Notes under the pieces: generated by a model
Seen by the model: the letters and a program-made list of their open reading frames with translations, nothing else
Databases searched by the model: none
What the model was told of the DNA's origin: nothing
Source: an uncultured Clostridia bacterium
GTDB taxonomy: Bacteria; Bacillota; Clostridia; TANB77; CAG-508
DNA length: 64,000 nucleotides
Assembly (NCBI GenBank): GCA_928721565.1
Contig: OV788638.1
Location: 1,666 to 65,665 of the forward strand
Direction of reading: 5' to 3'
Shown here: in pieces, positions 3,458-28,213 of the stretch
Position numbering within the stretch: the stretch's first letter is position 1
Layout of the letters: each line of letters opens with the position of its first letter
Made by a program: the position numbers and the translations under genes

Positions 3458-3591
3458 GCTTCTTTTCATTCCTTTCCTGGTTTCTGCATTTGTTCTGTTC
3501 TAATAATTATATGCATTGTATCATATAGCCCCAAAAAAGTACACATATTCAAGTGAATATATGTACTTTCTATTTTAGTATGGCTTGATTT

Positions 3592-4893
3592 TTAATTTTT
3601 TTGACATATTAATTCGTCTCTTACCTTTTCTATTTCTTCTACACTAGCACCAGTTAATTGTTCTATTGTATCATATGTTAATTGTATTCTTAGCATTCTT
3701 ATAATTACTTCTTTTAATGTCTCTCTTTTCGCTTCTTTTATTGCCTTTTCTTCTTTTTCTTCTTTCTCTTTAATTTTCGCTTCTGCTTTATTTAGTTTAG
3801 CCTCCATCTCATCTGCTCTCGCTACTGCTTTATCAGCCATTTCTATAGCTTCGTTTCTATTCGCTTCTGCCTCATTAAACCAATCTCTTACTCTTTCCTG
3901 AATCGTACTCATATTATCTTCCTCCTTTTCTTCAATGATACTTATAATTTTTTTCAAATCATTTACTTCTATTTTTTCATATAAATATTTTAATAATTCT
4001 CTCACTTCTTCTAGTTCTGTTTTAGTAATTGAACTATTTATTATTTTATTAAAACATTCAAATAACTCTTTTGGATTTTTACACTTTTCTAGAACCATTG
4101 CTTTAGCTAGATTCGTATTTTTTCTTAATAATTCATCAATTTCAAATTCATTTATATCAATTACTTTATACTCTATATCTATTCCTTTTATATAATTTTC
4201 TGGTATTTTTGCCACTTTATCTGAGTACTTAGTAGATACTGACCATTTTCTATTTCCCGTATAAATCACTATTGGTAAAATTAGCGGATATTTGTATTCT
4301 TCATGATGTTTGCTCATATTTTTTATAGCTCTTCTACTTATTTCAATACTATATTCTAGCATTCTAAATGGCATATTATAATCAATTTTTGTTTGATGTT
4401 CTATTAAAAAATAAATATCCTCTTCTTTTACTCTATAAAGTATATCTACTAATTTTTCATTTCCGGATTTAGTAATATATTCCCCATTTTGTAATTCTAA
4501 TTCTCCATTAAAATCACATAAAATAAATTCTTTTATAAATTGTTTCATTTCTTCTTTGTTGTGCAATATTTCTTTAAACATTTTATCATGTTTTTTGTCT
4601 AATATGTATTCTGCTGATTCCTCATTACATTGTAACTCATCTTTAAGACGATATTCTTCTAATTGTCTTTCAACTTCATCTTTTACTCTTTTATATTCTT
4701 CTATTTGTCCTGTTACTAACAAATAATCAGAATATGTAAAAATGTATTTTCGCTCTGGTAATTCGATACTATCTACCTCCTTTTTATTTATTTTTTCAAT
4801 GTTCTTTTCTATTCTACGATTTTTTACTCTGATATAAATAATTTGAATTTTTGAAATAAATTTCTTAACCATACTAAAATAGTACACATCCAT
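3592..4893 (-). CDS. Rpn-family (YhgA-like) recombination-promoting nuclease / putative transposase, with N- and C-terminal extensions
   Basis: The internal segment DKKHDKMFKEIL ... DILYRV ... IYFLIEHQTKIDYNMPFRMLEYSIEI ... PLILPIVIYTG matches the conserved PD-(D/E)XK core of the Rpn/transposase_31 family (HDxxFK, LIEhQs, MPlRMLxY). The true start is uncertain because the ORF begins about 95 aa upstream of the usual family N-terminus. Confidence 0.7.
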   Translation of the reverse strand: MDVYYFSMVKKFISKIQIIYIRVKNRRIEKNIEKINKKEVDSIELPERKYIFTYSDYLLVTGQIEEYKRVKDEVERQLEEYRLKDELQCNEESAEYILDKKHDKMFKEILHNKEEMKQFIKEFILCDFNGELELQNGEYITKSGNEKLVDILYRVKEEDIYFLIEHQTKIDYNMPFRMLEYSIEISRRAIKNMSKHHEEYKYPLILPIVIYTGNRKWSVSTKYSDKVAKIPENYIKGIDIEYKVIDINEFEIDELLRKNTNLAKAMVLEKCKNPKELFECFNKIINSSITKTELEEVRELLKYLYEKIEVNDLKKIISIIEEKEEDNMSTIQERVRDWFNEAEANRNEAIEMADKAVARADEMEAKLNKAEAKIKEKEEKEEKAIKEAKRETLKEVIIRMLRIQLTYDTIEQLTGASVEEIEKVRDELICQKN

Positions 4894-4924
4894 TCTAACA
4901 CACTACTCTCGTAAAATCAAGTAT

Positions 4925-4949
4925 TTTTAGATAAGAGTTTATTTAGAAC
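4925..4949. repeat. Left copy of the 25-bp direct repeat TTTTAGATAAGAGTTTATTTAGAAC flanking the IS
   Basis: Identical 25-mer at 4925-4949 and 6065-6089, directly abutting the IS terminal inverted repeats. Confidence 0.8.
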
Positions 4950-6063
4950 TGTAGGTTTGTCAAACATATGTCACACTTTATTGATGAATCTAGTGTTTCG
5001 TATACCAAATATGATATGTTGGCTCTACAATGCTTGAAATTCCTCATATTTCTCATTTGGACTTTTCCATCCTAATGGTTTCATTGGAAAGTTATTATAC
5101 TCTCTTGACCAATGCCTTAATTTTTCTTTAAAATCTTCAAAACTTACAAATATTCTCTTGTAATAAAATCTTTCTTGATCCTTTCTATGACTTCTTTCTA
5201 CTTTTCCGTTATGCCTTGGTGTCCTTGGTTTTATTAGTTTATGCTCTATTCCCATTTCTTCCATTCTCTTTTCAAACATTGTCTTCTCTTTTGCTTTTCT
5301 CGAATTTAGTCTATTTGTAAATTCAAATCCATTGTCTGTTTGTATACATTCTATTTTATATTTGAATTTCTTTATTATTATTTCTAAAAATTGTGTTGAT
5401 GCATAGGTACTATGTTCTTTGCTAGCCCATAATACTCTCTGCCTTGTATACTCATCTATTGCTGTATATTGATAATATTTCTCTTCTAGCTCTTTCAATT
5501 CATTTGACATACATTTCTGTGGCACATATTTTACATCTATTTGTATTCTTTCTCCTGGATGACTCATTTTCTGATATGGTTTTGGTTCATATTTTTTCTT
5601 TTTACTTGGTGCTTTTTTATATATTCCTAGTCTTTGCATCACCCTATACAAACTCGTTATTTGCCTTGTATATCCGTTTCTCATCAATTTTATCCACAAT
5701 ACCACTAACCCTGCGTCTGGGTTTTGAGCTTTATATTTCTTTATCATTTTTATTTCTTCCTGTGTATGTTGATTTGGGTGTGAATGTGGTCTTCTTGATT
5801 TATTCACTAATGATTTTCTACTTCCATCATATTTTTCTCTCCATCTATATATTGTTTTTCTATGCTGTTTATATCTTTTCGCTGCTTCTGTCACTCCGTG
5901 TTTTAATGAATATTCTACAACTGATTGCTTAAATATTATATCTTGTGTTATACTATTCATAGGAAATACCTTCTTTCGATATTAGTTTTGTGGTAAAAAC
6001 ATTATATCATATTGGTATTTCCTTTTTTTATTCTTTAGTGTGACATATCTATTGTAAACCTAT
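4950..6063 (-). mobile_element. Compact IS481-like insertion sequence (about 1.1 kb) with imperfect terminal inverted repeats
   Basis: A single transposase ORF is bounded by IRL TGTAGGTTTGTCAAACATATGTCACACT (4950-4977) and IRR, read on the opposite strand, ATAGGTTTACAATAGATATGTCACACT (6063-6037). The inner 12 bp (ATATGTCACACT) and the AGGTTT block are identical. A 25-bp direct repeat lies immediately outside both ends. Confidence 0.6.
5025..5960 (-). CDS. DDE transposase, IS481-family-like (HTH plus rve integrase core)
   Basis: 311 aa with an N-terminal HTH region (TIYRWREKY) and the DDE/rve motifs IQIDVKYVP, YQYTAIDEYTR, TDNGFEF and KPRTPRHNGKVERSHR, as in IS481/IS3-superfamily transposases. 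Confidence 0.8.
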   Translation of the reverse strand: MNSITQDIIFKQSVVEYSLKHGVTEAAKRYKQHRKTIYRWREKYDGSRKSLVNKSRRPHSHPNQHTQEEIKMIKKYKAQNPDAGLVVLWIKLMRNGYTRQITSLYRVMQRLGIYKKAPSKKKKYEPKPYQKMSHPGERIQIDVKYVPQKCMSNELKELEEKYYQYTAIDEYTRQRVLWASKEHSTYASTQFLEIIIKKFKYKIECIQTDNGFEFTNRLNSRKAKEKTMFEKRMEEMGIEHKLIKPRTPRHNGKVERSHRKDQERFYYKRIFVSFEDFKEKLRHWSREYNNFPMKPLGWKSPNEKYEEFQAL

Positions 6064-6064
6064 A

Positions 6065-6089
6065 TTTTAGATAAGAGTTTATTTAGAAC
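6065..6089. repeat. Right copy of the 25-bp direct repeat flanking the IS
   Basis: Identical to 4925-4949. Confidence 0.8.
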
Positions 6090-6192
6090 AAATAAGAAAA
6101 ATTTTCAATTTTTCTTTGATTTGTTCTCGCCCGATTTGAGTTTTCGACTAAAAGGAGAAAATCTCAAAGGGCTAGCGATTGTAGCTTTTTAT

Positions 6193-6253
6193 ATAATAGG
6201 AAAGTATCACTTTCCTATTATATAAAAAAAGAGCTTTAATAAAAGCTCTTTTT
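6193..6253 (-). terminator. Tandem hairpins immediately downstream of pnp; the distal one is a rho-independent terminator
   Basis: GAGCTTT-aataa-AAGCTC (6231-6248) is followed on the minus strand by a run of T. It is preceded by a perfect 13-bp stem ATAATAGGAAAGT-atc-ACTTTCCTATTAT (6193-6221). Confidence 0.7.
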
Positions 6254-8994: not shown

Positions 8995-9244
8995 AATAAC
9001 ACCTCCTATTTCTTTTTCTCCTTATACCGAGCCACAATAATAGGTGTTTTTTATTGCGCTAAGTTTAAGGAACATTTTTTTACATAACTATTGTACTATA
9101 CTTTACATGAAAAATCAAGCATTTATGGAAAATTTTTGGTACTTTAGTAACTGATTCTTTGTCTTACCCTTTTCACAAAAAATATCACAATAATGATATT
9201 TCTATCAAAATTGTGATATTCTCACTTATATATCTTTCGATTAA

Positions 9245-11277: not shown

Positions 11278-13210
11278 ATGTGTGGAATTGTTGGTTTTGT
11301 AAATTATAAGCAAAACGTCTCAAAATATAAAAATATTTTATTAAATATGAATAACTCTCTTTCACGAAGAGGCCCTGATGAAGACGGTTATTACACAAAA
11401 GATCATGTTGCATTTGGACACAAAAGATTAATAGTAATTGATCCTGAAGGAGGAAAACAACCAATGACATCAATTGTTCCTTTAAGAACCGGTCCCGAAC
11501 GGTCACTTGTTCAAAACAGAACCGGTCCTTAATGAACAAATGCACCAAAGAGAACCGGTCCCTAATGAGCAACACTGTTCAATTGTGTACAATGGTCAAA
11601 TTTATAATACTAAAGAATTAAGACAAACTTTAGAGGAAAATGGATTTACTTTTGAAGGTCATAGTGATACAGAGGTATTATTAAAAAGTTACATTTTTTA
11701 CGGAAAAGATGTAGTTCACCATCTAAATGGTATTTTTGCTTTTGCTATTTGGGATTCTAAAAATGAAGAACTTTTCATGGCTAGGGATCATTTCGGTGTT
11801 AAGCCTTTATTTTATACTATGCAAAATAATTCTTTTATTTTTGCCTCTGAGATTAAGGCTATATTTCAATATCCTGGTGTTCAAAAAATTTTAGATTCTC
11901 AAGGTGTAGCCGAATTATTTGGTATTGGTCCAGCTCATACTCCTGGAACTACTATTTTTAATAATATTTTTGAATTGAAACCTGCTCATTTTGCAGTTTT
12001 CAACCGTTCAGGTCTTCATCTTGAAAGATATTGGAAATTAAAAAGTGCTCCACATACTGAAAATTTCGTCCAAACTTGTGACCATTTAGAATTTCTTCTA
12101 AAAGATGCAATTACTAGGCAGTTGGTCTCTGATGTCCCTTTATGTACCTTTTTGTCTGGTGGATTAGATTCAAGTATTATTACAAAATATGCATCTGATT
12201 ATTGTTTTGAACATAATCTACCACCACTTGATACTTATTCTATTGACTATGTTGATAATGATAAAAATTTTGTAAAGAGTGACTTTCAGCCTAATTCTGA
12301 TAATTACTACATAAATTTGATGGTTAATAAACTTCATACCTCTCATCATCCTATTGTAATTGATACTCCTGAACTTGCAGAATATCTAGAAGATGCAATG
12401 CTTGCTAGAGATATGCCTGGAATGGCTGATATTGATTCTTCTCTTTTATTATTCTGTAAATATGTTAAGCCTACTGCAACAGTTTCTCTTACAGGGGAAT
12501 GTGCTGATGAAATCTTTGGTGGATATCCATGGTTTTTCCGCGAAGATGCTCTTCAAAGTGGAACTTTCCCTTGGTCTATTGCTATTGATGAACGTCAAAC
12601 TTTACTTAATCCACGCATTGCTCAAAAAGTTAATCTTAAAGATTATATAAACTATAGATACACTGAAAGCCTTGACCAAGTTGAAATTCTTGATACTGAT
12701 TCTTTAGAAACTGCTGAAAAAAGAAAAATTTCACACCTTACACTTAATTGGTTTATGCAGACTCTTCTTGACAGATCTGACAGAATGGCTATGTACAATG
12801 GTTTTGAACTACGTGTTCCATTTTGCGATTATCGTTTAGCTCAATATGTTTGGAATATTCCTTGGGAAATAAAAGCTCTTAATGGTAGAGAAAAAGGATT
12901 GCTTCGCTATGTTTCTCGTAAGTTTTTGCCTGCTGAAATTGTGGATAGAAAAAAGAGCCCTTATCCAAAGACTCATAATCCAACTTATTTGGCAAAGGTA
13001 AAATCAATGCTTTCAACTATTATGGCTAATCCTCATGCTCCTATTAATTATCTTTTAAATAAAGATTATATTTTGAGTATTCTTGAAACTGATGGTAAAG
13101 CTTTCTCTAGACCTTGGTTTGGTCAGTTAATGACTGGTCCTCAATTGATGGCGTATTTGTGCCAGGTTAATATGTGGCTTGAAAGGTATCAGCCTAAAAT
13201 CATTTTCTAA
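11278..13210 (+). pseudogene. asnB: Asparagine synthetase (glutamine-hydrolysing) interrupted by a 101-bp repeat insertion after codon 67; the reading frame is broken
   Basis: The N-terminus MCGIVGFVN (catalytic Cys2; RBS GGAGG 10 nt upstream) continues to ...GGKQPMTS and then into repeat sequence, with a stop at 11530-11532. The remainder of AsnB (CSIVYNGQIYN...HSDTEVLL...LSGGLDSS...) continues in a different frame from 11507. Removing 11478-11578 plus one copy of TCAATTGT restores an in-frame ...KQPMTSIVYNGQIYN. Confidence 0.75.
11478..11578. repeat. Three-unit array of the GAACCGGTCC palindromic repeat inserted inside asnB, flanked by an 8-bp direct duplication TCAATTGT (11470-11477 and 11579-11586)
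   Basis: Cores GAACCGGTCC at 11486-11495, 11519-11528 and 11552-11561. The flanking 8-mers are identical, consistent with a target-site duplication. Confidence 0.8.
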
Positions 13211-13245
13211 AATAATAGAGGTCACAAATTGTGACCCCCTTTTTT

Positions 13246-15475
13246 CTATTTTAATGTAAATGTATCTGATAATAAATTTTCTTCATTTGAACTACCGCCA
13301 ACAAAAACTTTAAACTCTCCCTCTTCTGCTTCAAATTTCATGCTTTCATTCCAAAACTTAAGCATCTCTTCAGATATTTCAAATTTCACACCAATTTCTT
13401 CTTTTGGTAAAATTTTCACCTTTTTAAAGGCTTTCAGCTCTTTTACAGGTCTAACTACGCTTCCTACTAAGTCCTGAATATATAATTGAATAACTTCCTC
13501 TCCTACTACATCACTAACATTTTTGACTTTTACATTAACTACTATTTGAGAATGTTTATCCAAAATTTTATTACTTAGTTTTATATCAGAATAAACAAAT
13601 TTAGAATATGATAGTCCAAACCCAAAAGGATAGTAACTTTCCGCTGGAATATCTTGGTAACGTGAAACATATCTCATATTCTTTTTATACGGTCTTCCTG
13701 TATTATAATGATTATAATAAATTGGGCATTGTCCTACAGCTTGAGGAAAACTCATTGTTAATTTTCCTGATGGATTAGTATCACCAAAAACTACATCTGC
13801 AATTGCATTTGCACCTTCTGTTCCGGGGAACCATACCTCTAATAAACCATCTACTTTTTCAGCAATTCCTCTTAATACTATAGGTCTGCCATTAAATATA
13901 ATAGCTACTATCTTTTTGTTTAATTTTGATAATTGTTCTAACAATCTCTTTTGTATATTCGAAATTTCTATATTTGTTCTTGAACACGCCTCACCTGTTT
14001 GCTTATAATGTTCTCCTATTGCTAATACAATTACATCTACACCTTTGGCTATTTTTACTGCCTCCTCTAAGTATTCCTCTAATTTTTCTTTTTCATTTTC
14101 TAAATGAATTACATTTTCTCCATCGGCTTTTAAAATTTCATTTATCTCTTTTTCTTCTAAAATCTCACTGCCTTTTGCATATAATACATTATCTTTTCCT
14201 ATTTTTGATTCAAAAGCTTCTCTTAAAGTTGTAATTTTTGATTTATCTGAAAACATTGACCATGACCCTAATATAGCAATATTGTCAGCATATGGACCTA
14301 TTAATGCGATTTTTTGATTTTTGCATAATGGCAATATATTATTTTGATTTTTTAACAATACAAATGTTTTTGCAGTTAATTCTCTCGCCTTTTTAAAATT
14401 TTCTTCACTTAATAGAACTTTCTTTTCTAAATAGTAATCCATATTTTTATATGGATTTTCAAATAATCCTAATTTATTTTTTAATTTTAAAACTCTTAAA
14501 ACTGCTTCATCAATTATATCCTCAGAAACTAATCCTTCTTCTACTAATTGTTTCAAATTATTTGAATAGACATTTGACATCATATCAATATCTACTCCAG
14601 CAGTAATCGCTTTATAAGCTGCTTCTTTTTTATCTTTGGCAACACCGTGTTCAATTGTTTCTTCAATTGCCGAATAATCTGAAATAACTATTCCTTTAAA
14701 TCCAAGTTCTTTTCTTAGTAAATCTGTTAATAGCCATTTGTTTACAGTTGCAGGAATTCCATTAATAATATTAAATGATGTCATTATCATTTCTGCACCA
14801 CTATCAATTGCTGATTTATATGCCGGCAAATAATATTGTCTAAATTCTCTTTGCGACATGTCAACTGAGTTATAATCTTTTCCCGCTTCTACCGCTCCAT
14901 ATGCCGCAAAATGTTTTACACACGATATAATTCCATCATCCTTATTGCCATTAACTTCTTTATGTGCTTTAACCATATCTTGAGCAAATATTTGCCCTAA
15001 ATATGGGTCTTCTCCTCCAATAGATTCCATAACTCGTCCCCATCTTGAATCTCTAACTAAGTCTACCATTGGCGAAAAATTAACATTTGCTCCGTGCTAC
15101 TTGTGCCTCTTTTGCAGCTAATTTAGTTGATTCATAAACAACTTTGCTATCCCATGAACATCCTTGAGCAAGTGGTATTGGTAGAACAGTTTTATATCCA
15201 TTTATAATGTCTGCCATAAATAGTAATGGTATTTTTAATCTATTTTTGGCTAAATAATTTTCTTGTATTTTTCTAATTTTTTCAGTTCCAACTACATTTA
15301 ATATTGAACCTACATTATACAGCATTTCATTTGAAATTTCTAAATCTTTTAATGGGCCTGTTGAAACTTCAATATCGTCCATCAAAAAAATTTCTCCTGC
15401 AACCTGCACAAGTTGTCCAATTTTCTCTTCTAAAGTCATTTTTTGTATCAATTCATATAATTCTTTTTCTTTCAT
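13246..15475 (-). pseudogene. Glycoside hydrolase family 3 beta-glucosidase (BglX-like), split by a +1 frameshift near 15092-15096
   Basis: The upstream ORF (131 aa) ends ...AKEAQVARSKC*. The downstream ORF (607 aa) starts MVDLVRDSRWGRV... The alternate frame across the junction reads GANVNFSPMVDLVRDSRWGR, which reconstitutes the GH3 motif. One extra nucleotide in 'gcacggagc' accounts for the shift. Confidence 0.8.
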
Positions 15476-16710
15476 ATTTTTATTGATGCCTCCACTTTTG
15501 TAAATTCTAGAATCTCTAATCCTTTTTTCACATATTTATTTTTCATAAAATACTCCCAAATAACTCCAGATAAGTAGTTTTCAATCATTATCATAGAAAT
15601 ACCTTTATCTATTCCTATACACTCTTCTGAAATCCAAGGTTCTGTATTTTCTAAATTATATGCATCTTTAAAACCATATTTTCCCCAAAGCTTATGAAAA
15701 TTATTGTAGTAATTTTCTACTGCCCTAATACTTATATCTGGTGTAAACACTATCGAACCAATTGCACCACAAGGTGCAACAGTTCCATCATTTTGATTAT
15801 CTAAATCTGCCAGTGCTGGCATTGCACCATATCCTCCAGAATATCCTTTTGGACCTACACATGCAGTAAGTCCCCATGAGTTTTCACCATATGTTTTAAA
15901 TCTATTGCTATTTTTTATACAAAATTTTCTATTAGCAAGAGTCGCTCTTCTGGAATTTTCAAACCAATCAATCCCATTCTTATCTTTTAGCCCTCTAAAG
16001 TCAATCCATGCATGAGAATATTGATATGTAAATAAAGTTCCACAATATGTATAAATTATATTTTTTTCATCTAAGTAGTCTTTTTTATCCTTTTTAAAAA
16101 AATCATATAAAACTTTATTAATCGGATAAGTTGGAGATGCCACTCCTAAAATATATAAAATTAATTGTTCTGCATACATATCCCAATGACCTTCAAATCC
16201 TTTTTCTTTAGAATATCCCATATAAAATTGATTAACCTTTTTGTCTACATACCAATTCCAATTTATTTGTTTATATAATAGCTCCGCCTTTTCTTTAACT
16301 TTTCCTCCAAAATATTCACCAGCAAAAATTGCACCACAAATAAATATAGCTGTATCTATAATTGAATTTTCTGAATTCCATTCTCTTTGTGCAGTTTCCA
16401 TATTAATAAAATGATAAAAAAAACCATTTATATTTTCCAAACTATTTAAAAATGTATCTAATGTCCCCTCTACTCTTTCATTAGCTTTTTCATAAGTAAT
16501 CCAATTTCTTTCCACCCCTATTGCTAATGCAGCTAGCCCATATCCAACAGACGCAATACTTGCAATTTCTGGTGCAAAAGCACTTTTGTCTCTAATCAAT
16601 CCATATCCTTTACTTTTTTTATTATTATTTGCTTCTTTTGTAAAAAAATTATAATCCCCTTGTAACTCTTTTTTTAATATATCTATACCTGTAAGAAATT
16701 TTTTCTTCAT
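15472..16710 (-). CDS. Six-hairpin glycosidase-like protein (glucoamylase/GH144-DUF3131-like; possible endo-beta-1,2-glucanase partner of the adjacent GH3)
   Basis: 412 aa from the ATG at 16710 (RBS GGAGGA 5 nt upstream). Motifs YSHAWIDFRG, WGLTACVGPKGY and GYGAMPALADLD resemble the glucoamylase-like (alpha/alpha)6 fold. Family assignment is from memory and uncertain. Confidence 0.45.
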   Translation of the reverse strand: MKKKFLTGIDILKKELQGDYNFFTKEANNNKKSKGYGLIRDKSAFAPEIASIASVGYGLAALAIGVERNWITYEKANERVEGTLDTFLNSLENINGFFYHFINMETAQREWNSENSIIDTAIFICGAIFAGEYFGGKVKEKAELLYKQINWNWYVDKKVNQFYMGYSKEKGFEGHWDMYAEQLILYILGVASPTYPINKVLYDFFKKDKKDYLDEKNIIYTYCGTLFTYQYSHAWIDFRGLKDKNGIDWFENSRRATLANRKFCIKNSNRFKTYGENSWGLTACVGPKGYSGGYGAMPALADLDNQNDGTVAPCGAIGSIVFTPDISIRAVENYYNNFHKLWGKYGFKDAYNLENTEPWISEECIGIDKGISMIMIENYLSGVIWEYFMKNKYVKKGLEILEFTKVEASIKI

Positions 16711-17060
16711 ATTTTCCTCCATAACATAATTATAGTACATTTCTTTTATTATGTTCAATGGAAATTTTTGAGCATAATTTGCTACCACTTGATATTTATT
16801 CTATAGACTATATTAATAAAAGCATACACTTAGTATGTTTTTCCCCTCACAGGGTAAGCCGTTTAACTTTCCTCATTTACTCGCTTGATTTACTATACAA
16901 GGTTACGTATATCTTTTGGGCTTCGACTTGTTAGGTAGCCTTACCCTTTTGCATAGCATTAATGGCGATATATACCTCCAGTACGGACTTTCACCGATTA
17001 GCTAAACAACATGCCTGTCGCACCATATATAAAAGACTAATATGTAATCTTTTTATTTAA

Positions 17061-17366
17061 ACATTCCTGTCTGGTGGATTAAATTTTTGTAAAGAGTGAT
17101 TTTCAGCATAATTCTGATAATTACTACATGTTTGGAATATTCCTTGGGAAATAAAAGCTCTTAATGGTCGAGAAAAAGGTTTGCTTCGATATGTTTCTCG
17201 TAAATTTTTGCCTGCTGAAATTGTGGATAGAAAAAAGAGTCCTTATCCAAAGACTCACAATCCAACTTATTTGGCAAAGGTAAAATCTATGCTCTCAGAA
17301 ATAATGGCTTACCTTTGCCAAGTTAATATGTGGCTTGAAAAGTATCAGCCTACAATGCATATATAA
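17061..17366 (+). pseudogene. Mosaic remnant of a second asnB copy carrying three internal deletions
   Basis: Near-identical to asnB segments 12140s, 12270-12308, 12846-13010 and 13150-13196 joined head to tail. It translates as ...LRYVSRKFLPAEIVDRKKSPYPKTHNPTYLAKVKSML..AYLCQVNMWLEKYQP. Confidence 0.75.
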
Positions 17367-17554
17367 AAATATGCATATAGAACAAAAGCGGACATTAATA
17401 ACTTTTGTACTTATTAAAACATTTTGAAGTCCGCGTCTTTGTTCGTGCGCGAAATTTGCAAAGCAAATTTCTGTGCAATATATTTATATTATAGGAAGTT
17501 CAGAGAACTTTCCTATAATATAAAATAAGTGGGATATAATGTCCCACTTATAAC

Positions 17555-17896
17555 TTACATATAATATATTAATATTCCTAACAGAATAAGCCCATTGCCT
17601 AAGATTTTCTTTTTAGTAATCTTTTCGCCAAGAATTCTATTACTTAAAATCATTACAAAAAGATAACCCAAAGATTCTATTATTGGCTCGTTTTTATAAG
17701 GAACCCCTTTTAGTCCAAACACTACAAGCACAGTTGAGATTACCATTAAAATATAACCTGTTATTACATATACATTTAAATATTCTTTTAAAACTGAATT
17801 ATAAGATTTGGAAGCACTTTTTTTCAAAATAATTTGAGATATTGAGCTTACCAAAACTGCCAAAATCAATAATACTACATATTTATTCATCTTCAT
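17555..17896 (-). CDS. Small 4-TM DMT/SMR-like membrane protein (GtcA/ArnE-ArnF-like lipid-linked sugar flippase subunit)
   Basis: 113 aa with four predicted TM helices. It is paired with a second small DMT protein and lies downstream of the GT2/GT-C cluster. Confidence 0.5.
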   Translation of the reverse strand: MKMNKYVVLLILAVLVSSISQIILKKSASKSYNSVLKEYLNVYVITGYILMVISTVLVVFGLKGVPYKNEPIIESLGYLFVMILSNRILGEKITKKKILGNGLILLGILIYYM

Positions 17897-18281
17897 TATT
17901 CACTATAATTGTTCCTATTATTACAATTAATACTCCTATTACATTTTTTATTGTTATTGTATCATTAAATATTAGAATTGCCCATACAATTGACCAAAGT
18001 AATCCCATAGCTTTATTTGCATACGCTATTGAAATATCAAATTTTTTTAATAATTGTTGCCAAATAATTGCATATACACCTAAAATCATCATTTCTATTC
18101 CATAGTATAATATAAATTGAAATGACATAAATTCTTGGCCTGATGCAAATTTAGCACAAACAGTTGATAATGTATATATTGCAATAACAATCTGAAGAAT
18201 ACATATATCTTTTAACTTTGTTTTCTTCTTTTTTTCGTTATCTAACTTTACTAATTTTGTTTTATCTACTTCTTCATTCAT
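17883..18281 (-). CDS. Small 4-TM DMT/SMR-like membrane protein (second flippase-like subunit)
   Basis: 132 aa with a hydrophobic EamA-like half-domain. It overlaps the next gene by 14 nt. Confidence 0.5.
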   Translation of the reverse strand: MNEEVDKTKLVKLDNEKKKKTKLKDICILQIVIAIYTLSTVCAKFASGQEFMSFQFILYYGIEMMILGVYAIIWQQLLKKFDISIAYANKAMGLLWSIVWAILIFNDTITIKNVIGVLIVIIGTIIVNNEDE

Positions 18282-18301
18282 TAGAAATTAATTCTCCTTT
18301 T

Positions 18302-19429
18302 CTAAATTGCTAAAATATAATATCCATATCTTGTTGAGCTATCAACAATTTTATGAGAATTTATTTTTTCTATTGGACTCACATAATAAATATATTCCGG
18401 ATGCTCTTTTTTTACTTTTTCTAGTTCTTCTATATCTGCTTCTGTAAAAATGAATTTGATAACCGCCTTTTTAGGTTCTACAACTTTTGTAAAATCTGGG
18501 GCATTTCCTAAAGCAACATCTATAACCATTTTTAAAAAATCATATCCTGTTGAAATTTTTACTAAATCTGAGCCTATGCAATCTCCACCCATTCTAGCCC
18601 CAATTTCAATTATCTTTACTTTTCCATCAGATGTAATTTTAAATTCTGCATGTGATGCTCCATTTGTAATTTGTAAACTATTTAATCCTGCAAAAACTTC
18701 TTTTTTTATTTTCTCTAACATTTCTGAATCTAATCCTGCCGGTTGAGTATGTCCTGTTTCTATAAAATGTGGTGCACCTGTTGTTTGCTTTCTAGTTACT
18801 GTCAACAATGTATGTTTTCCTTTATACGAAATACTTTCAGCACTAAACTCATCTCCAGTTATATATTCTTCTATAATAGCCATTTTTTCAAATGAAACCT
18901 CAACAGCTGTTTCTATTGCTTCTTTTAACTTTCCAGATTTTACTTCTTCCCAATTCTCTATTTTATTGATTGATCTGCTTCCAGACCTATCTGTTGGTTT
19001 TACAATAATTGGCATTGAAAAATCACTTATTTTAGATATTTCTTCTTTTCCTGTACCTGTAACTTTTGCAAATTTAGGAACTGATACTCCATTTGTTAAA
19101 AATGCATTTCGCATTTCATATTTATTTGTAGATAATTTTGTACATTCAAGGCTATTTCCTACAAGTCCTAATTTATCTGCCAAATAGTTTACTGTTAATG
19201 TGGCCAAATCTGATGCAACTGAAATAACCGCATCTGGCTTTATTTCTTTACATTTATCTAATATCTTATCTTTTTCTACTATACTTATTGGATAAAAATA
19301 ATCTGCAAAGTCAGCACCAACAGCACCTTCTACCCAAGCAAATACATGCGTTTCATACCCTAGTTCTTTAGCTTTTATTATGAGTGGCATCTGAAAATTA
19401 TTTGCTCCTATAATAACAATTTTTTTCAT
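18302..19429 (-). CDS. ATP-grasp domain ligase
   Basis: 375 aa with an ATP-grasp fold (MPIIVKPTDRSGSRSI...IEEYITGDEFSAESI...HFIETGHTQPAG...IIEIGARMGGD). Confidence 0.7.
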   Translation of the reverse strand: MKKIVIIGANNFQMPLIIKAKELGYETHVFAWVEGAVGADFADYFYPISIVEKDKILDKCKEIKPDAVISVASDLATLTVNYLADKLGLVGNSLECTKLSTNKYEMRNAFLTNGVSVPKFAKVTGTGKEEISKISDFSMPIIVKPTDRSGSRSINKIENWEEVKSGKLKEAIETAVEVSFEKMAIIEEYITGDEFSAESISYKGKHTLLTVTRKQTTGAPHFIETGHTQPAGLDSEMLEKIKKEVFAGLNSLQITNGASHAEFKITSDGKVKIIEIGARMGGDCIGSDLVKISTGYDFLKMVIDVALGNAPDFTKVVEPKKAVIKFIFTEADIEELEKVKKEHPEYIYYVSPIEKINSHKIVDSSTRYGYYILAI

Positions 19430-19463
19430 TTAGAAACTTCCTTTCTTCCACTTGATTAGTGAA

Positions 19464-20600
19464 TTAATTAGTTTTTTCATAAAATTCTTTTATTGCTTTT
19501 ATTACTTTATCTTGTTCTTTTTGAGTTAATCCATAATACATTGGCAATCTTACTAGCTTTTCACTCTCAGCTGTTGTATATTTATCTTCTCCATTAAACC
19601 TTCCAAATCTCTTTCCTGCAGGAGAATCATGTAATGGAATATAATGAAATACAGATTGTATTTCATTTTCTTTTAAGTATTTAATCAGTGCTGTTCTTTC
19701 TTCTAGATTTTTCGCTTTTATGTAAAACATATGTGCATTATGAGTACTATATTCTGGAACATATTGTAATGTTATTTTTCCACTATTTTCTAGTTCTTGT
19801 AAATTTTCTTTATAATACTCCCATGCAGATAATCTTGCATTATTAATTTCTTCTGCCATTTCAAGTTGAGGATATAAATATGCACAATTTAATTCGCTTG
19901 GCAAATATGATGAACCATAATCTACCCATGTATATTTATCAATTTCTCCTCTAAAGAATTTATTTCTGTTAGTTCCTTTTTCTCTTATTATTTCAGCTCT
20001 TTCTATCAATTCTGGATCATTTATTACAATAGCTCCACCTTCTCCCATGCTGTAATTTTTAGTTTCGTGAAAACTATAACATCCAAGATCTGCAATTGTC
20101 CCTAAATATTTTTCTTTGTATTTAGACATAAAACCTTGTGCTGCATCTTCTACAACTTTTAAATTATGTTTCTTAGCAATTTTCATAATTTTATCCATAT
20201 CTGGTGAAATTCCTGCATAGTGAACTACTGCAATCGCTTTAGTTTTAGGCGTTATTGCTTCTTCAATTTTATTTTCATCAATATTCATTGTTTTAGGATT
20301 TATATCTACAAAAACAACTTTTGCCCCAACCATAATAAATGCATCTGCTGTTGATACAAATGTATATGATGGCATTATTACTTCATCTCCTGGTTGTAAA
20401 TTCAATAAAATTGCAGTCATCTCAAGAGCATCAGTACAAGATGTTGTTAATAATACTTTTGTGGCATTAAATTTATCTTCCATCCATTTACTACATTTTT
20501 TTGTAAATTCTCCATCTCCACAAATTTTTCTACTTTTTATTGCTTTTTTTATACAATCTAATGAACCTTCTACATAAATTGGTATATTAAATCCTATCAT
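19464..20600 (-). CDS. DegT/DnrJ/EryC1/StrS-family PLP-dependent sugar aminotransferase (ArnB-like)
   Basis: 378 aa with motifs TTSCTDALEMT, VIMPSYTFVSTA and SFHETKNYSMGEGG (PLP-lysine region). Confidence 0.85.
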   Translation of the reverse strand: MIGFNIPIYVEGSLDCIKKAIKSRKICGDGEFTKKCSKWMEDKFNATKVLLTTSCTDALEMTAILLNLQPGDEVIMPSYTFVSTADAFIMVGAKVVFVDINPKTMNIDENKIEEAITPKTKAIAVVHYAGISPDMDKIMKIAKKHNLKVVEDAAQGFMSKYKEKYLGTIADLGCYSFHETKNYSMGEGGAIVINDPELIERAEIIREKGTNRNKFFRGEIDKYTWVDYGSSYLPSELNCAYLYPQLEMAEEINNARLSAWEYYKENLQELENSGKITLQYVPEYSTHNAHMFYIKAKNLEERTALIKYLKENEIQSVFHYIPLHDSPAGKRFGRFNGEDKYTTAESEKLVRLPMYYGLTQKEQDKVIKAIKEFYEKTN

Positions 20601-20621
20601 TTTTATCCTCTTCTTTCTATT

Positions 20622-21965
20622 TTAGTTATAAGCCGGTATTACATATGAGAATATCGCTTTAAATGATATTGCAATAATTAATAACATTATCATTATAATT
20701 ATAATATTTCTTATTTTTTCTGACTTTATAAATTTTTCTAGCATTGTCTGAATTCCATTTACCACAAAATACATAAATGGTATTATAATTCCCATTATAT
20801 ATCTACCCTGTGGTTGAAAATCACTTGTATATGAATATATAATACTTAAAAGTATTGGTATAATAATTGCTATTACAAAAATATAATTTAAAATATATTT
20901 ACTTTTTTCCTCTTTTTTATAAATAAATAAATCTTTAAATTTTAATAAACATCCAAGTCCTCCTATTGACCAAAGGCTCAAATATGAATAATATATTTTA
21001 TTTGACGTTAATATACTCTGATATCCGAATATTCCCACAAAACTTTTGACTGTTGTCTTAGCCCATGCATCTTCATTTAACATGTGCCAAATGCTTTCAT
21101 TACTACTTTCTGGTGTTTTTCTTACTGATGGCTTATATTGTTCTAAAGCATATTTATCTCCATATTCATTTTGTGTCTTGGTTCCTAATATATCTCCATC
21201 ATAAATTATTGCATTCCTTACAAACCACCAACCAGCAACTGCAAAAGCTACACTTGCTACTATTAAAGCTTTTTTTGCAATTTCTTTTGCATCCATTTTG
21301 TTCAAAACAGCTGAACTTAAGCAAATTAATACACTACATAGAATATATCCATATGCATTGTAATATGTTAAAGCACAAAAACCAACTGCTCCACCTAGTA
21401 ATATACAATGTTTTGTTTTCCAATTGCTTTCCAATCCTAATATCCATAAATAAATTATCATAGATATTGCTAAAATTGCAGTTGAATCATTATTTATATA
21501 CGAAGCTAAAAATGCAGTTATTGGCTGAAATGCAATAAATACTATAAATAAATATTTGTAAATTCCTTTATCTTTAAAAAGTTTATTCGCAATCTTTATT
21601 ACAAAGTATATTGTCAATGTCATACTTATTGTACTTACAAGCCTTGCCGCTACTACTAATGCAAATTGTTGTGTAGTAAAAATTGATGCTATCTTTACAA
21701 ATACTGCACAAATCATATATGTAAGAATTGGTTGAAACGCATACGAAATTCCCCAAGCTGAATCTCGTATACTTTCATCTCTTCCATCTGGTATTGAATT
21801 ATGTTCTGCAATATATTTACAAATATCCCATTTCATTTTTTCGTCTGGGCATGAATTATATGGTTGTGATACTGTCCATATTAAATAATAACAAAATAAA
21901 CCAATTAAAAATATAGCCATTACAATTTTCTTATTTTTTTTGCATATTTCTAAAATTTTATCCAT
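20622..21965 (-). CDS. GT-C fold membrane glycosyltransferase (ArnT/YfhO/PMT-like)
   Basis: 447 aa and more than 10 TM helices. An N-proximal periplasmic loop carries a DE motif (SCPDEKMKWDICKYIAEHNSIP), as in GT-C enzymes that use polyprenyl-phosphate sugar donors. Confidence 0.6.
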   Translation of the reverse strand: MDKILEICKKNKKIVMAIFLIGLFCYYLIWTVSQPYNSCPDEKMKWDICKYIAEHNSIPDGRDESIRDSAWGISYAFQPILTYMICAVFVKIASIFTTQQFALVVAARLVSTISMTLTIYFVIKIANKLFKDKGIYKYLFIVFIAFQPITAFLASYINNDSTAILAISMIIYLWILGLESNWKTKHCILLGGAVGFCALTYYNAYGYILCSVLICLSSAVLNKMDAKEIAKKALIVASVAFAVAGWWFVRNAIIYDGDILGTKTQNEYGDKYALEQYKPSVRKTPESSNESIWHMLNEDAWAKTTVKSFVGIFGYQSILTSNKIYYSYLSLWSIGGLGCLLKFKDLFIYKKEEKSKYILNYIFVIAIIIPILLSIIYSYTSDFQPQGRYIMGIIIPFMYFVVNGIQTMLEKFIKSEKIRNIIIIMIMLLIIAISFKAIFSYVIPAYN

Positions 21966-22908
21966 TGTTAGTTTTTTCTCCCTTTTCCACTTTTTCTATA
22001 ATATATGGTGGTCTTTTTCTTGCTGCATCAAAAGTTCTCCATAAATACTCTCCAAGTATTCCAATTGATAACATTATAATTCCAAATCCCACTAACATAA
22101 TTATAATAATCGATGCATATCCCTCAACATCAATTATTCCTGTCATTTTTTTATAAATTATAATTACCAACCAAATTAGTGCTATAAAAAAGCTTAAAAT
22201 TCCTACTGTAGTTATCATTTTTATAGGAAAATATGAAAAACTTAATAGAGAATCATATACTAATTTGATTTTTTTAGATAATGTCCATCTTGATTTTCCT
22301 ATTTCTCTTTTTTTTCTAACATATGAAACAGTTGATGTTTCAAAACCTGCCCATAAAATTTGACTCATTAATGAAGTATTGCTTTCTTGAATTTTTACTA
22401 AAAAATCTATAACCTGTCTATCTATTAAAAATGAATCAAATCCTCCTTTTGGCATATTGTGTAATGCTAGTTTTCTCATTAAAAATGCATATAAGTTTGA
22501 AAATGCTTTTTGCGTAACAGGCTCATCTCTATCTGCTCGTACAGCTAAAACAACTTTACTTCCTTCAATATATTTTTTAATCATATCTAATATCATTTCT
22601 GATGGCTCTTGCAAGTCAGCAGCTTTCCTTACAGCGCAATCTCCAGTGCATTGAGACAATCCTGCCAAAATTGCAGAATGTTCTCCAAAATTTCTTGATA
22701 ATCTTATTGTTTTTATATTAGAATCAATTTTTGCTAGCTCTTTCATTACTTTATACGAATTATCTTTTGATCCATCATCAACAAATATTAATTCATATTC
22801 TATTCCTTCTGGTAATTTTGTAAGTACTTTTTCCTTTAAGTCAGCATATAATGGCAAAAGATTGTCTTGATTATAATATACTGGAACTACTATTGAAATT
22901 TTTTTCAT
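21958..22908 (-). CDS. GT2 polyprenyl-phosphate sugar synthase (CsbB/ArnC/GtrB-like)
   Basis: 316 aa. GT-A signature SIVVPVYYNQDNL...IFVDDGSKDNS, two C-terminal TM helices, and an 8-nt overlap with the GT-C gene. Confidence 0.85.
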   Translation of the reverse strand: MKKISIVVPVYYNQDNLLPLYADLKEKVLTKLPEGIEYELIFVDDGSKDNSYKVMKELAKIDSNIKTIRLSRNFGEHSAILAGLSQCTGDCAVRKAADLQEPSEMILDMIKKYIEGSKVVLAVRADRDEPVTQKAFSNLYAFLMRKLALHNMPKGGFDSFLIDRQVIDFLVKIQESNTSLMSQILWAGFETSTVSYVRKKREIGKSRWTLSKKIKLVYDSLLSFSYFPIKMITTVGILSFFIALIWLVIIIYKKMTGIIDVEGYASIIIIMLVGFGIIMLSIGILGEYLWRTFDAARKRPPYIIEKVEKGEKTNNG

Positions 22909-25880: not shown

Positions 25881-26004
25881 TGATCATTTGTGATCATTTG
25901 GGATCATTTGGGACCGGTTCTCTTTTGAACAATGTTCATTGAGGACCGGTTCTCTCTTGACCAGTGTTCATTGAGGACCGGTTCTTAAACGAACAAAATG
26001 AACA
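25881..26004. repeat. Array of about 4 tandem units of the 31-bp palindromic repeat (GGACCGGTTC cores at 25911, 25943, 25975) preceded by degenerate TGATCATTTG copies
   Basis: tgttcattgaGGACCGGTTCtct..tgaaca units spaced about 32 bp apart, lying between the uvrA start and the upstream gene's terminator. Confidence 0.85.
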
Positions 26005-27902: not shown

Positions 27903-27968
27903 TGTTCATTTGGGACCGGTTCTCTTTTGAACAATGTTCATTTGGGACCGGTTCTTAAATGATCACTT
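27903..27968. repeat. Two tandem units of the palindromic repeat (cores at 27914 and 27945)
   Basis: tgttcatttGGGACCGGTTCtcttttgaaca a tgttcatttGGGACCGGTTCttaaatgatca. The second unit supplies the last 10 codons and the TGA stop of the bofA-like ORF. Confidence 0.85.
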
Positions 27969-28213
27969 TTAAGATTATTAAAAAAATTGCCCCTGGTATG
28001 CCCAGTAAACCGTACTAAAACTGAAGTAAGTAAATTTAACCCTATATGAAATCCCCATATACCACCAATTAAATTAATAGCATAAATAAGTACTCCTCCT
28101 AAAATTGAATTAAAAACTAACTTCAAAATTTTCTTTATTGGAATTATAAAAATTCTTCCAACGATAAATAAAATACATATACAAGATATTATTATAAGAA
28201 CATTTATGTCCAT
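27938..28213 (-). CDS. bofA: BofA-like small membrane protein (pro-sigma-K processing inhibitor family); C-terminus derived from a repeat unit
   Basis: 91 aa and 2 TM helices. LGGVLIYAINLIGGIWGFHIGLNLLTSVLVRFTG resembles BofA. It is adjacent to a yaaL-like gene, as in the Bacillus yaaL-bofA arrangement. The tail ...KSDHLRTGPK* is encoded by the repeat. Confidence 0.5.
   Translation of the reverse strand: MDINVLIIISCICILFIVGRIFIIPIKKILKLVFNSILGGVLIYAINLIGGIWGFHIGLNLLTSVLVRFTGHTRGNFFNNLKSDHLRTGPK

Follow-up and report, generated by a model that had tools for sequence, protein, structure and literature searches.

Background

REP, BIME and REPIN sequences are short imperfect palindromes that occur in many copies per genome and lie mostly outside genes, as singles, in clusters or as inverted doublets. 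REPINs are REP doublets which can form a long hairpin and are mobilised by RAYTs, HUH Y1 transposases that are usually encoded by one gene per genome with REPs beside it. REPINs have been described as specific to a lineage, as persisting at the same sites across species and as having an own master sequence in each genome (bioRxiv 10.1101/2021.07.10.451892). Rickettsia palindromic elements (RPEs), which are single elements of about 100-150 bp, are palindromic repeats found in unrelated metabolic genes, where they are translated in frame as an extra peptide (PMC10969869, section 4.2). MITEs such as Correia, ERIC and RUP are small, non-autonomous, dispersed and palindromic, possess terminal inverted repeats and a target-site duplication of fixed length, and can enter genes and create fusions. 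In MIRU-type repeats small ORFs overlap the neighbouring genes, and prfB is an example of +1 frameshifting, in which an in-frame stop comes after a conserved slippery codon and an SD-like stimulator lies a few nt upstream. Annotation routinely treats repeat-broken genes as pseudogenes, from which auxotrophies of uncultured gut bacteria are then deduced.

Here we analysed a repeat array within the asparagine synthase gene asnB of an uncultured Clostridia bacterium (GenBank: OV788638.1). The window, by which we mean the whole stretch of DNA that was analysed, is 64,000 nucleotides long. In our best overall explanation, to which we assign a probability of about 0.6, the array is an old REP-like resident of a hairpin of the enzyme and asnB would still be expressed.

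Organisation of the repeat family

The core of the repeat, AGAACCGGTCC, is found in 15 exact copies in the window, where 0.02 are expected, and by our reading ten of them lie between ORFs. Among 81 sequences the exact core occurs only in the window, L001, L012 and L016, which are the genomes with a frame-broken asnB. A metagenome scan for contigs containing both the core and YNGQIYN yielded four. Each unit extends over about 31 nt as an imperfect palindrome with ACCGGT at its centre, and the outer arms differ between species (TGTTCA/TGAACA, TGCAC/GTGCA and TGCGCA/TGCGCA). Units are present as singles, as tandem arrays of two to four or as inverted pairs, mostly in intergenic positions. A tandem array starts and ends differently, with TGNNCNTTTA on the left and CWAATGANCA on the right in place of inverted termini, and each unit within it is palindromic. 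Besides the array in asnB, the following copies were located in the window:

about 9141-9166, plus strand: decayed unit (GGTACTTTAGTAACTGATTCTTTGTC) 3' of the S15 gene
25911-25985, minus strand: three-unit intergenic array with a period of 32, between UvrA and an FGE-sulfatase-like gene
27913-27955, minus strand: two-unit array adjoining the BofA-like ORF 27938-28213
28714-28756, plus strand: two-unit intergenic array
31074-31116, no strand assigned: inverted unit pair between the seryl-tRNA synthetase and GTPase genes, with cores at 31074 and 31106
36550-36560, plus strand: single intergenic unit
43954-43964, minus strand: single unit, translated in the EPVPN frame as N-terminal sequence of ORF 43400-43975
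51874-51884, minus strand: intergenic unit with an adjacent decayed inverted unit

Read by eye, the BofA-like ORF apparently takes its final codons (..RTGPK) and its stop from the first unit at 27913-27955.

The family shares with REP sequences and REPINs the short imperfect palindromes in many, mostly extragenic copies, the occurrence as singles, clusters and inverted doublets (L012 5084/5121 and 5953/6018, window 31074/31106), the restriction to a lineage with the same sites occupied across species and an own master sequence per genome, and the lack of a target duplication. It differs from them in its commonest form, which is a head-to-tail array with a fixed period of 32-38 nt, in its host, a low-GC gut Clostridia lineage, and in the asnB array being intragenic and in coding sequence. 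A further difference is that single units fold no better than shuffled sequence, and with z-scores of -0.95 to +0.9 we rejected the hairpin of a single unit, as RNA or DNA, as the functional core. The inverted doublet at L012:5070-5145 folds at -67.3 kcal/mol with z = -16; inverted doublets are a minority of the copies in the window. No RAYT or Y1_Tnp domain was detected by Pfam in the scanned ORFs of the window, which represents 64 kb of a genome that measures at least about 1.55 Mb.

Similar to RPEs, palindromic units are translated in frame in the asnB hairpin of L096, L098 and L099, and in the window the unit at 43954 lies in frame at the start of its ORF. Unlike RPEs, the units measure 31-38 nt and stand in arrays, the host belongs to a different phylum and the asnB array in the window is out of frame. 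The small size, the dispersal, the palindromic form and the apparent lack of autonomy recall MITEs. An assignment to MITEs is not supported by the target sites: a long flanking repeat is present at the asnB array only (p of about 0.1) and at the boundaries of none of 17 other arrays, and the family is modular. The units abut at their 32-38-nt period without unique spacers, which is not the organisation of a CRISPR array. No Rfam family matched the repeat at its gathering score, and in the literature searched the core motif appeared in primers and cloning sites only, not as a bacterial repeat. Judged by its sequence organisation, the family is a REP-like, clade-specific repeat not in Rfam.

The array in the asparagine synthase gene

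Except for the broken frame, the gene is an asparagine synthase of the class II (Ntn) amidotransferases. The N-terminal Met-Cys of the glutamine-hydrolysing enzymes (MCGIVGF) and the FLSGGLDSS motif are both present. For the family tests we used the repaired gene, as a 607-aa reconstruction and as a 615-aa version with a consensus hairpin. PF13537 covers residues 48-160 and PF00733 residues 235-599, TIGR01536 is hit with 498 bits (cut-off 267), and the PDB entries 7ylz and 1ct9 are matched at 2e-120 and 1e-36. The features of the locus are as follows:

11278-11466, plus strand: native N-terminal part of asnB, 63 codons (MCGIVGF..GGKQPM), with the Cys2 nucleophile and a start equipped with a Shine-Dalgarno (SD) sequence
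11467-11587, plus strand: variable segment between QPM and YNG, 121 nt (1 mod 3) here and 36 nt in array-free relatives
11470-11477, plus strand: left octamer TCAATTGT, its last 3 nt part of the left arm of the array
11475-11583, plus strand: repeat array, which begins with the left-end signature TGTTCCTTTA and ends with an incomplete fourth arm, TGTTCAA
11486-11529, plus strand: stretch of 44 nt open in both the N and the C frame, in which one +1 shift anywhere would fuse the two parts
11530-11532, plus strand: TAA stop of the N-terminal ORF (11278-11532, 84 aa), following core 2, which is read R-T-G-P
11540-13210, plus strand: C-terminal ORF of 556 aa, its ATG 7 nt past the TAA
11579-11586, plus strand: right octamer TCAATTGT, its TCAA the end of the arm-like TGTTCAA

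The sequence-only reading had described two identical octamers, three cores, a stop at 11530 and a deletion that restores the frame, and all of these are confirmed, as is its view that the gene is interrupted and its frame broken by an array of three units from a dispersed repeat family. The octamers are separated by 101 bp (11478-11578), and the cores (11485-95, 11518-28 and 11551-61) start at 11485, 11518 and 11551 with a period of 33. Removing 109 bp (11478-11586) opens an asnB ORF of 1824 nt and 607 aa that reads ..GGKQPMTSIVYNGQIYN.. at the junction. As the gene stands, the C part is in the +1 frame relative to the N part and there is no single uninterrupted reading frame.

A separation of the glutaminase from the synthetase domain had also been described. 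Instead, the gene is broken at residue 63, inside GATase_7 (residues 48-160), and Asn_synthase begins only at residue 235. The C-terminal ORF accordingly codes for the remaining glutaminase domain, from the NG oxyanion strand onwards, and for the synthetase domain (Pfam). The array lies in the DNA for a surface beta-hairpin of the glutaminase domain and replaces the first approximately nine of the hairpin's 12 codons. The start of the N part has an SD duplex energy of -9.3 kcal/mol, compared to a median of -6.15 for the genes of the window; the SD of the C-terminal ORF is weak, at -2.4 kcal/mol. Gene calls in four independent contigs include this ORF, and the exact protein is also found on a public contig of 1,549,218 bp.

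Short-read assemblers can miscount tandem 33-bp units, and an artefact of assembly or sequencing at the repeat would be a trivial explanation for the insert. However, four contigs, which come from four other samples and pipelines, contain the exact 84-aa N-terminal ORF and an identical insert in a gene of 99.5-100% identity, and since the period is 33, the frame would stay the same if units were miscounted. We therefore regard an artefact as next to impossible. Within species the samples are uniform, and the L012-type allele is present in 10 contigs.

Age of the array

The array had been interpreted as a recent transposition of a mobile three-unit element which duplicated the 8-bp target TCAATTGT and knocked out asnB, so that another source of asparagine would be needed. 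Several observations fit this reading. The direct repeat of 8 bp is exact, its copies stand 16-17 nt beyond the two outermost cores, and removal of the 109 bp restores the frame. A shorter, 5-bp duplication (TCAAT) would agree with a left end of the family starting at 11475. Moreover, the right octamer copy covers native codons: TCA ATT GTG corresponds to the x-I-V codons before YNG, which are TCA ATT GTA in the array-free L003.

Other comparisons argue against it. The site was located in 79 species, and in 69 of them exactly 36 bp (12 codons, IEKYSYGEYVIV-like) lie between QPM and YNGQIYN. The reconstruction leaves only 12 bp, and the resulting link of four residues is shorter than in any homologue seen, the shortest of which has eight; a clean empty site is not supported. 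Relatives do carry extra residues at this position, which agrees in part with what had been named as refuting the insertion, though these do not match the inserted sequence. None of the 17 other arrays from four genomes has a duplication flanking its boundaries. The octamer itself occurs eight times in the window, which is the chance expectation, and about 10% of random placements of two 45-nt flanks at the octamer spacing share a word of at least 8 bp. Both copies also overlap the arms of the array: the conserved left end begins within the left copy, which includes 3 nt of it, and the right copy includes the last 4 nt of TGTTCAA. As evidence the two octamers are far weaker than had been assumed, and a family that transposes with target duplication is not supported.

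Furthermore, the three sister species L012, L016 and L001 have arrays at the same asnB site, which lack such octamer repeats. Other sites are held in common as well. The site 3' of the S15 gene has one unit in L016, an inverted pair in L012 and four tandem units in L001, and the UvrA/FGE-sulfatase spacer of L096 carries L096's own unit variant. At each shared site the array is made of the host genome's own variant. Since the sister arrays stand at the same site, each in the version of its own genome, the asnB site has probably long been occupied, and from these comparisons its occupation probably predates the divergence of the four sampled species. Independent insertions at a hot spot may also account for same-site arrays in sister species. 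Together with the purifying selection on both gene parts across the frame-broken clade, described below, these results leave a recent insertion very improbable, and we are confident that the array is an old resident and not a fresh insertion with target duplication. Where sites are shared, the arrays follow the changes of the remaining copies in the same genome, which bears on the persistence of such repeats. The arrays of the window, L012 and L016 align by position only. Alleles with an in-frame array are scattered among relatives with ancestral loops.

Selection on the frame-broken alleles

The frame-broken asnB alleles form one clade. In all of them the N part of 63 codons and the C part of 540 codons are intact, with the exception of L100, whose C part has 527 codons. 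The dN/dS is 0.026-0.084 for the C part and 0.04-0.19 for the N part, at a dS of 0.2-1.3. For comparisons between lineages of a sub-clade with homologous +1 architecture, omega takes values of 0.05-0.17 (p of 1e-4 to 1e-27 versus neutrality), and the sub-clade with the shared +1 array has no other lesion at a C-part dS of 0.15-0.27. A neutral simulation at K = 0.05 yields about five stops, with a probability of 0.002 that there are none. Strong purifying selection on both parts among the frame-broken alleles does not agree with the loss of function implied by the sequence-only reading. More distant relatives have intact AsnB proteins of 630-643 aa in which two to three units are translated in frame, from which we conclude that the loop tolerates insertions. 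Judged from these patterns asnB is likely to be still functional, and the inference of an auxotrophy from this gene is probably wrong.

The frame-broken alleles might instead be non-functional, the arrays mutating fast with recent and independent breaks or switching the gene on and off by unit number, and the selection signal dating from times when the gene was in frame or from recombination with intact alleles. Unit number does vary (L090 +36, L001 +38), and by a hand reading of the frames the gain of a 32-nt unit would put an L016-type array in frame. L001, with a segment of 141 nt (0 mod 3), three in-frame stops and no canonical start in the C frame, looks null, so that by sequence at least one allele has this appearance. 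The second copy of asnB in the window is plainly decaying, and a recombination mosaic exists. Against this reading, the frame-broken alleles are monophyletic, and the array of the sub-clade is homologous in its +1 state at a C-part dS of 0.15-0.27. The best hits in a search of 5.8 billion proteins included no unbroken allele of the clade closer than 90%, and samples within a species are uniform. Frame cannot be regained through unit number in the window (period 33) or in L012 (period 36), and switching by unit number was rejected as it is possible only for arrays with a 32-nt period. We judge non-functional alleles to be quite unlikely as the general explanation.

The mosaic is that of L088, which is identical to the remaining L012-type contigs in its N part and loop, with no more than one difference from L012, and has a pS of 0.11-0.13 in its C part. 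Recombination is evident here, and imported segments could mimic purifying selection.

Possible routes of expression

In the reading that we prefer, a REP-like repeat became resident in a tolerant hairpin of asnB, and after the site was occupied the arrays would have turned over in place. In the frame-broken clade the array would set the two gene parts in a +1 relation. That a protein is produced, and by which route, we infer. The route that we consider most likely is that abutting or overlapping ORFs give two polypeptides, an 84-aa N-fragment ending at the TAA at 11530 and a C-fragment restarting at the ATG at 11540, which would reassemble across the hairpin. In the window the ATG 7 nt past the stop has the geometry of translational coupling. 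An independent start of the C-terminal ORF driven by its own SD was rejected, as the start candidates in the C frame are weak in all alleles except L095 (-2.4 to -3.3 kcal/mol compared to the median of -6.15 for real genes; L095 -5.5). To our knowledge there is no natural two-piece class II amidotransferase. Two-piece expression specifically is a tentative proposal, to which we give less than even chances.

The main alternative is a +1 ribosomal shift within the dual-open stretch, programmed in the array, which would yield one full-length enzyme with a repeat-encoded loop of 25-40 residues; shifts at CCC-N or CCT-TAA, where the core reads R-T-G-P, are examples of sites. Seven out of eight distinct arrays have segment lengths of 1 mod 3 (88, 88', 97, 103, 106, 121 and 124), the differences among these seven all being multiples of 3, and each of the seven has a stretch of 44-134 nt in which neither the N nor the C frame is closed by a stop. 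The N frame of the window ends in CCT TAA, with the stop after a proline codon, the SD sites of the C-terminal ORFs are weak, and the relatives with in-frame arrays show that the loop is tolerated. However, the mod-3 pattern is also expected if the array lies mostly inside a separately initiated C-terminal ORF. No +1 slippery site is common to all alleles: the N frame of L095 stops before any R-T-G-P core, and L100 has CCT-A. An upstream SD stimulator of the prfB type is absent, and in L104, if real, the C-terminal ORF lies apart from the N part. We consider a programmed +1 shift unlikely, and less so than non-functional alleles.

Compared to prfB-type and coupled split genes, the locus likewise has a frame break that is shared between species, with low dN/dS before and after it and with ORFs that abut or overlap. 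It differs in that a search for a conserved slippery site, stimulator or SD was negative and that the break is on a mobile repeat inside a single domain. A programmed frameshift of the prfB type was rejected, as the CCT TAA of the window has no SD and other alleles end in TTA TAA or CGG TAA. Ribosomal hopping or precise excision between flanking direct repeats was rejected too: only the repeat of the window restores the frame, L012 has none of at least 5 bp, and the flanks of L016 and L001 share words of 5-6 bp only. The A-runs in the dual-open stretches are only 4-5 nt long, which speaks against transcriptional slippage. No conserved expression signal was found in the alleles examined.

The odds are about even that a stable, repeat-made frame break is decoded by the cell, either through a portable +1 recoding core or as a two-piece Ntn amidotransferase split in its catalytic domain. 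That selection has kept such a decoded break over a synonymous divergence of about 0.2 to more than 1 substitution per site is, in our estimate, equally balanced. If the product is confirmed, it would be a rare case of bacterial +1 recoding on a mobile repeat, or of an enzyme split within a catalytic domain by selfish DNA. The sister lineages with the same repeat in frame are natural controls.

A second asnB remnant

No AsnA or GatCAB domains were detected by Pfam in the larger ORFs of the window, a set without the 4015-aa ORF and ORFs of less than 90 aa. A second, heavily deleted asnB had been reported at 17061-17366. It does exist, and its position needs correction as it starts upstream at 16766:

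16766-17360, plus strand: second asnB remnant, in pieces at 16766-16819, 17077-17129, 17128-17297 and 17304-17360
16859-17021, minus strand: group II intron fragment, between asnB nt 981 and 983

The pieces match nt 928-981, 983-1035, 1569-1738 and 1871-1926 of asnB, respectively. The intron fragment is the sole Rfam match in the window, and the remnant lies at the edge of a 4.3-kb insertion.

An array inside the glutaminase domain of asnB

The asnB gene lies in a window with a G+C content of 29% and is interrupted by three tandem units of a palindromic repeat. The sequence at 11470-11586 is exactly as the sequence-only reading had described it: TCAATTGT is found at 11470-77 and again at 11579-86 with 101 bp between the copies. 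Three AGAACCGGTCC cores, the central motif of the unit, start within the array at 11485, 11518 and 11551. The frame from ATG 11278 (MCGIVGF..) ends at the TAA at 11530 and deletion of 109 bp yields an open asnB frame of 607 codons, both as claimed, so the observation itself is confirmed. The features are:

11278-11532, N-ORF, 84 aa, with the N part (63 codons up to QPM)
11467-11587, variable segment between the N and C parts
11540-13210, C-ORF, 556 aa, in the +1 frame relative to the N frame, with the C part (about 540 codons from YNG on)

Once repaired, the gene encodes a glutamine-hydrolysing asparagine synthase (TIGR01536, 498 bits, cut-off 267) with GATase_7 at residues 48-160 and Asn_synthase at residues 235-599. 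Its best solved relative is 7ylz (2e-120), and E. coli AsnB (1ct9) aligns with it over the N-domain. The glutaminase domain had been described as severed from the synthetase domain; the break is at residue 63 and therefore inside the glutaminase domain, not between the two. It falls between the strand aligned with the E. coli HERLSIVD segment and the NG(E/Q)IYN strand. The affected segment corresponds to E. coli residues of about 59-70 in the 1ct9 alignment, which we take to be a surface beta-hairpin.

The insert is no assembly artefact. The exact 84-aa N-ORF with an identical insert is present on contigs from four other samples (gene identity 99.5-100%), on which gene callers predict the 556-aa ORF with its start 7 nt past the N-ORF stop, and the 556-aa protein is also found on a public contig of 1,549,218 bp. 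A recombination breakpoint lies at the 3' end of asnB between the window and L081/L082, strains of the same species. These are 99.6% identical to the window through asnB, part from it at the last codons (13198-13210) and continue with different genes (a 198-aa ORF, GreA and NADAR).

A second, degraded asnB copy

In L012, L016 and L001, the loci of three sister species, asnB is directly followed by EamA genes. The window has 4.3 kb extra at 13211-17517, in which the following were annotated:

13246-15069 and 15080-15475, minus strand, GH3 beta-glucosidase broken into two ORFs
15472-16788, glycoamylase gene
16859-17021, minus strand, group II intron D1-D4 fragment (Rfam RF02001, 35 bits, gathering score 32)

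A second asnB copy in this block is reduced to four pieces. The remnant had been noted before and is real, with its start placed too far downstream, as it reaches up to 16766. The intron fragment is positioned exactly between nt 981 and 983 of this copy, which was thus once invaded by the intron. No AsnA or GatCAB domains were detected in the larger window ORFs scanned.

Three other species match the adjoining stretch at 17518-22000 (EamA, ATP-grasp, DegT aminotransferase, DUF2142) at 97-98% identity but the asnB of the window at only 87-91%, suggesting a recent exchange between species. Elsewhere in the window, a 4015-aa ORF (51922-63969, minus strand) holds an 87-bp tandem repeat (61853-62535, 7.9 copies), and the ORFs from 36.6 to 51.8 kb are mostly without a Pfam match.

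The proposed empty site and target duplication

The comparison covered asnB and its 10-kb flanks in 80 species representatives, all of them uncultured gut Clostridia or "Clostridium sp. CAG" genomes. Of the 79 species in which the site could be located, 69 have a QPM-to-YNG segment of exactly 36 bp (IEKYSYGEYVIV-like), and the shortest loop among all asnB homologues seen has 8 residues. The proposed clean empty site keeps only 12 bp (TSIV); it lacks about 24 bp of the native sequence, and this excision product is therefore not the ancestral state.

The flanking octamers had further been taken as a target-site duplication and as direct evidence of transposition. The octamer is not unusual in the window (8 copies, 8 expected), and an 8-mer common to the 45-nt flanks arises in about 10% of random placements. 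When all units of the window are listed in register on their core, a conserved left end, TGNNCNTTTA, directly precedes the core in the first unit of each array; in asnB this signature starts at 11475, i.e. within the left octamer. Past the third unit the sequence runs CAC-TGTTCAA, a match to the CAC-TTGTTCAA that separates units 1 and 2, so an arm-like sequence ends in the TCAA of the right octamer. The ATTGT(G) of the same octamer represents native I-V codons, where the array-free relative L003 has TCA ATT GTA. With no boundary repeat at any of 17 other arrays in four genomes and a chance match of about 10%, transposition with target duplication is not supported. A short duplication of 5 bp or less may have occurred at the asnB site alone; it is not a property of the family, nor would it be direct evidence of transposition.

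A REP-like repeat family

The core is a dispersed repeat with 15 exact copies per 64 kb, 0.02 being expected. Among 81 sequences the exact core GAACCGGTCC is confined to the window (15), L001 (10), L012 (7) and L016 (4). Units are imperfect palindromes of about 31 nt with ACCGGT at their centre and species-specific outer arms: TGTTCA..TGAACA in the window, TGCAC..GTGCA in L012, TGCGCA..TGCGCA in L016 and GTGAC..GGTAC in L001. The more distant L096 and L098 have the core variants GAACCGACCCC with GGGCAA arms and GAACCGGTACC with TGTACA arms, respectively. ACCGGT occurs 16 times in the whole window, 15 of them within repeat cores, and is almost missing elsewhere. Units are mostly intergenic and in both orientations; inverted pairs give very strong hairpins, and single units fold no better than shuffled sequence. 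No matching Rfam family was found, nor was the core motif found as a bacterial repeat in the literature searched.

Units are present in several species at three sites, always as the host species' own variant:

asnB hairpin
spacer 3' of the S15 gene: a decayed unit in the window, one unit in L016, an inverted pair in L012, four tandem units in L001
UvrA/FGE-sulfatase spacer: window 25911-85, L096 10223

This occupancy fits the pattern described for REP/REPIN populations, which persist over long times by vertical inheritance, each genome having a single master sequence (bioRxiv 10.1101/2021.07.10.451892). No RAYT-type enzyme was seen in the ORFs scanned from these 64 kb, the only such genes being an unrelated Transposase_31 and an rve integrase. 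Their genes (3592-4893 and 5025-5960, within 3550-6231) have no counterpart in relatives and no evident connection with the repeat family.

One further unit is intragenic, at 43954-43964 on the minus strand: it forms codons 4-9 of an ORF (43400-43975, MDKREPVPNDQ..) without a Pfam match and is translated in the E-P-V-P frame that is also used in asnB. Read by eye, a BofA-like ORF (27938-28213, minus strand) appears to end within the unit at 27938-27955 (..RTGPK, then stop), so its last codons and stop would come from the repeat. Between the S15 and pyruvate kinase genes, L012 (5068-7812) and L001 (4978-7862) carry a block of 2.7-2.9 kb with two genes, whose ORFs have 256 and 569 aa; it is missing from the window and L016 and has units at its left edge and between its genes.

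Related asnB alleles

The three closest species have arrays at the same asnB site and a likewise broken frame, and further alleles were found in public assemblies.

Arrays at the asnB site
L012, 88 nt, period 36
L016, 97 nt, period 32
L001, 141 nt, period 38
L090, public assembly, 124 nt
L094 and L102, public assemblies, 106 nt
L095, public assembly, 103 nt
L100, public assembly, 88 nt, sequence unlike that of L012

More distant relatives (83-87% identical) have an intact AsnB of 630-643 aa whose reading frame runs through two or three units, e.g. ..KKEPVPNCTFEKCAKREPVPNCTF.., matching the in-frame translation known for Rickettsia palindromic elements (PMC10969869). Some relatives have odd loops of 42-84 nt at the site, at least one of which, in L005, resembles a decayed unit. 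Neighbour-joining on the C part groups the frame-broken alleles in a single clade, and the in-frame arrays are dispersed among relatives with the ancestral loop, which may reflect either several insertions into the hairpin or loops moved by recombination. The contig L104 (1000-1140) lacks the N part: its C-ORF and array adjoin an acyl-ACP thioesterase gene, and the breakpoint coincides with the array's left edge. Either the repeat was the site of a genuine rearrangement or the metagenome assembly is chimeric.

Selection on the interrupted gene

Taken together, the array is probably a long-resident REP-like repeat in an insertion-tolerant coding hairpin of asnB, and its clade-wide +1 frame break appears, from the comparison of alleles, to be kept under selection. 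All frame-broken alleles have an intact 63-codon N part and all but L100 (527 codons) an intact 540-codon C part. Pairwise Nei-Gojobori dN/dS among the window, L012, L016 and L001 is 0.026-0.084 for the C part (dS 0.19-0.87) and 0.04-0.19 for the N part (dS 0.37-1.3). In the sub-clade of L016, L094, L100, L095 and L001 the arrays are visibly homologous in order (decayed unit, core 1, core 2), and all are +1 except L001, which equals L095 plus one 38-nt unit. Between these lineages omega is 0.05-0.16 for the N part (p 1e-4 to 1e-10 versus neutrality) and 0.05-0.17 for the C part (p 1e-16 to 1e-27). Under neutrality, simulation predicts about 5 new stops for K = 0.05 and about 15 for K = 0.19, with a probability of 0.002 or less for none; no stops were observed outside the array. 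The proposed knock-out of asnB, with both parts intact, low dN/dS and no such stops, is therefore probably wrong.

No unbroken allele of this clade was found among the best matches in 5.8 billion proteins, where any at about 93% identity would rank above every match listed. Array length is 1 mod 3 in seven of eight distinct arrays, the sole exception being L001 (103 plus one 38-nt unit), with three in-frame stops. By our own binomial estimate, which assumes six independent length changes, five or more of the six are multiples of three with P of about 0.02. Homology of the arrays in the window, L012 and L016 is suggested by their position only. As a caveat, recombination at asnB is visible in L088, whose N part and loop equal those of other L012-type contigs (at most one difference) with a C-part pS of 0.11-0.13.

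Candidate expression routes

The array is a variant upon REP/REPIN, Rickettsia palindromic elements and conserved frame-interrupted genes, and the question raised by the frame-broken asnB is open to experimental settlement. Both frames are open across 44-134 nt in every 1-mod-3 allele, and two candidate routes fit expression: two separate polypeptides, which we place slightly above the other, and a +1 shift.

For a +1 shift, slippage of the proline tRNA at the core would fuse the two parts, since the last core met by the N frame reads R-T-G-P (AGA ACC GGT CCC/T) in the window, L012, L016, L094 and L100, and the C frame reads the last core as E-P-V-P in all cases. The codon after this proline is a stop in the window (CCT TAA). 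There is no universal shift site, because L095 stops before any R-T-G-P core and the sequence in L100 is CCT-A. Two further mechanisms considered, hopping and excision between direct repeats, are feasible in the window only.

For two polypeptides, the N-ORF would end within or just beyond the array and the C-ORF would start inside it. In the window ATG 11540 lies 7 nt past the TAA, which is the geometry of termination-reinitiation. L095 has a candidate TTG start with a fair SD (-5.5 kcal/mol); the other candidate starts are weak (-2.4 to -3.3 kcal/mol), the median of real genes being -6.15. If it is not a chimeric assembly, L104, with its C-ORF abutting an unrelated gene, would favour two polypeptides.
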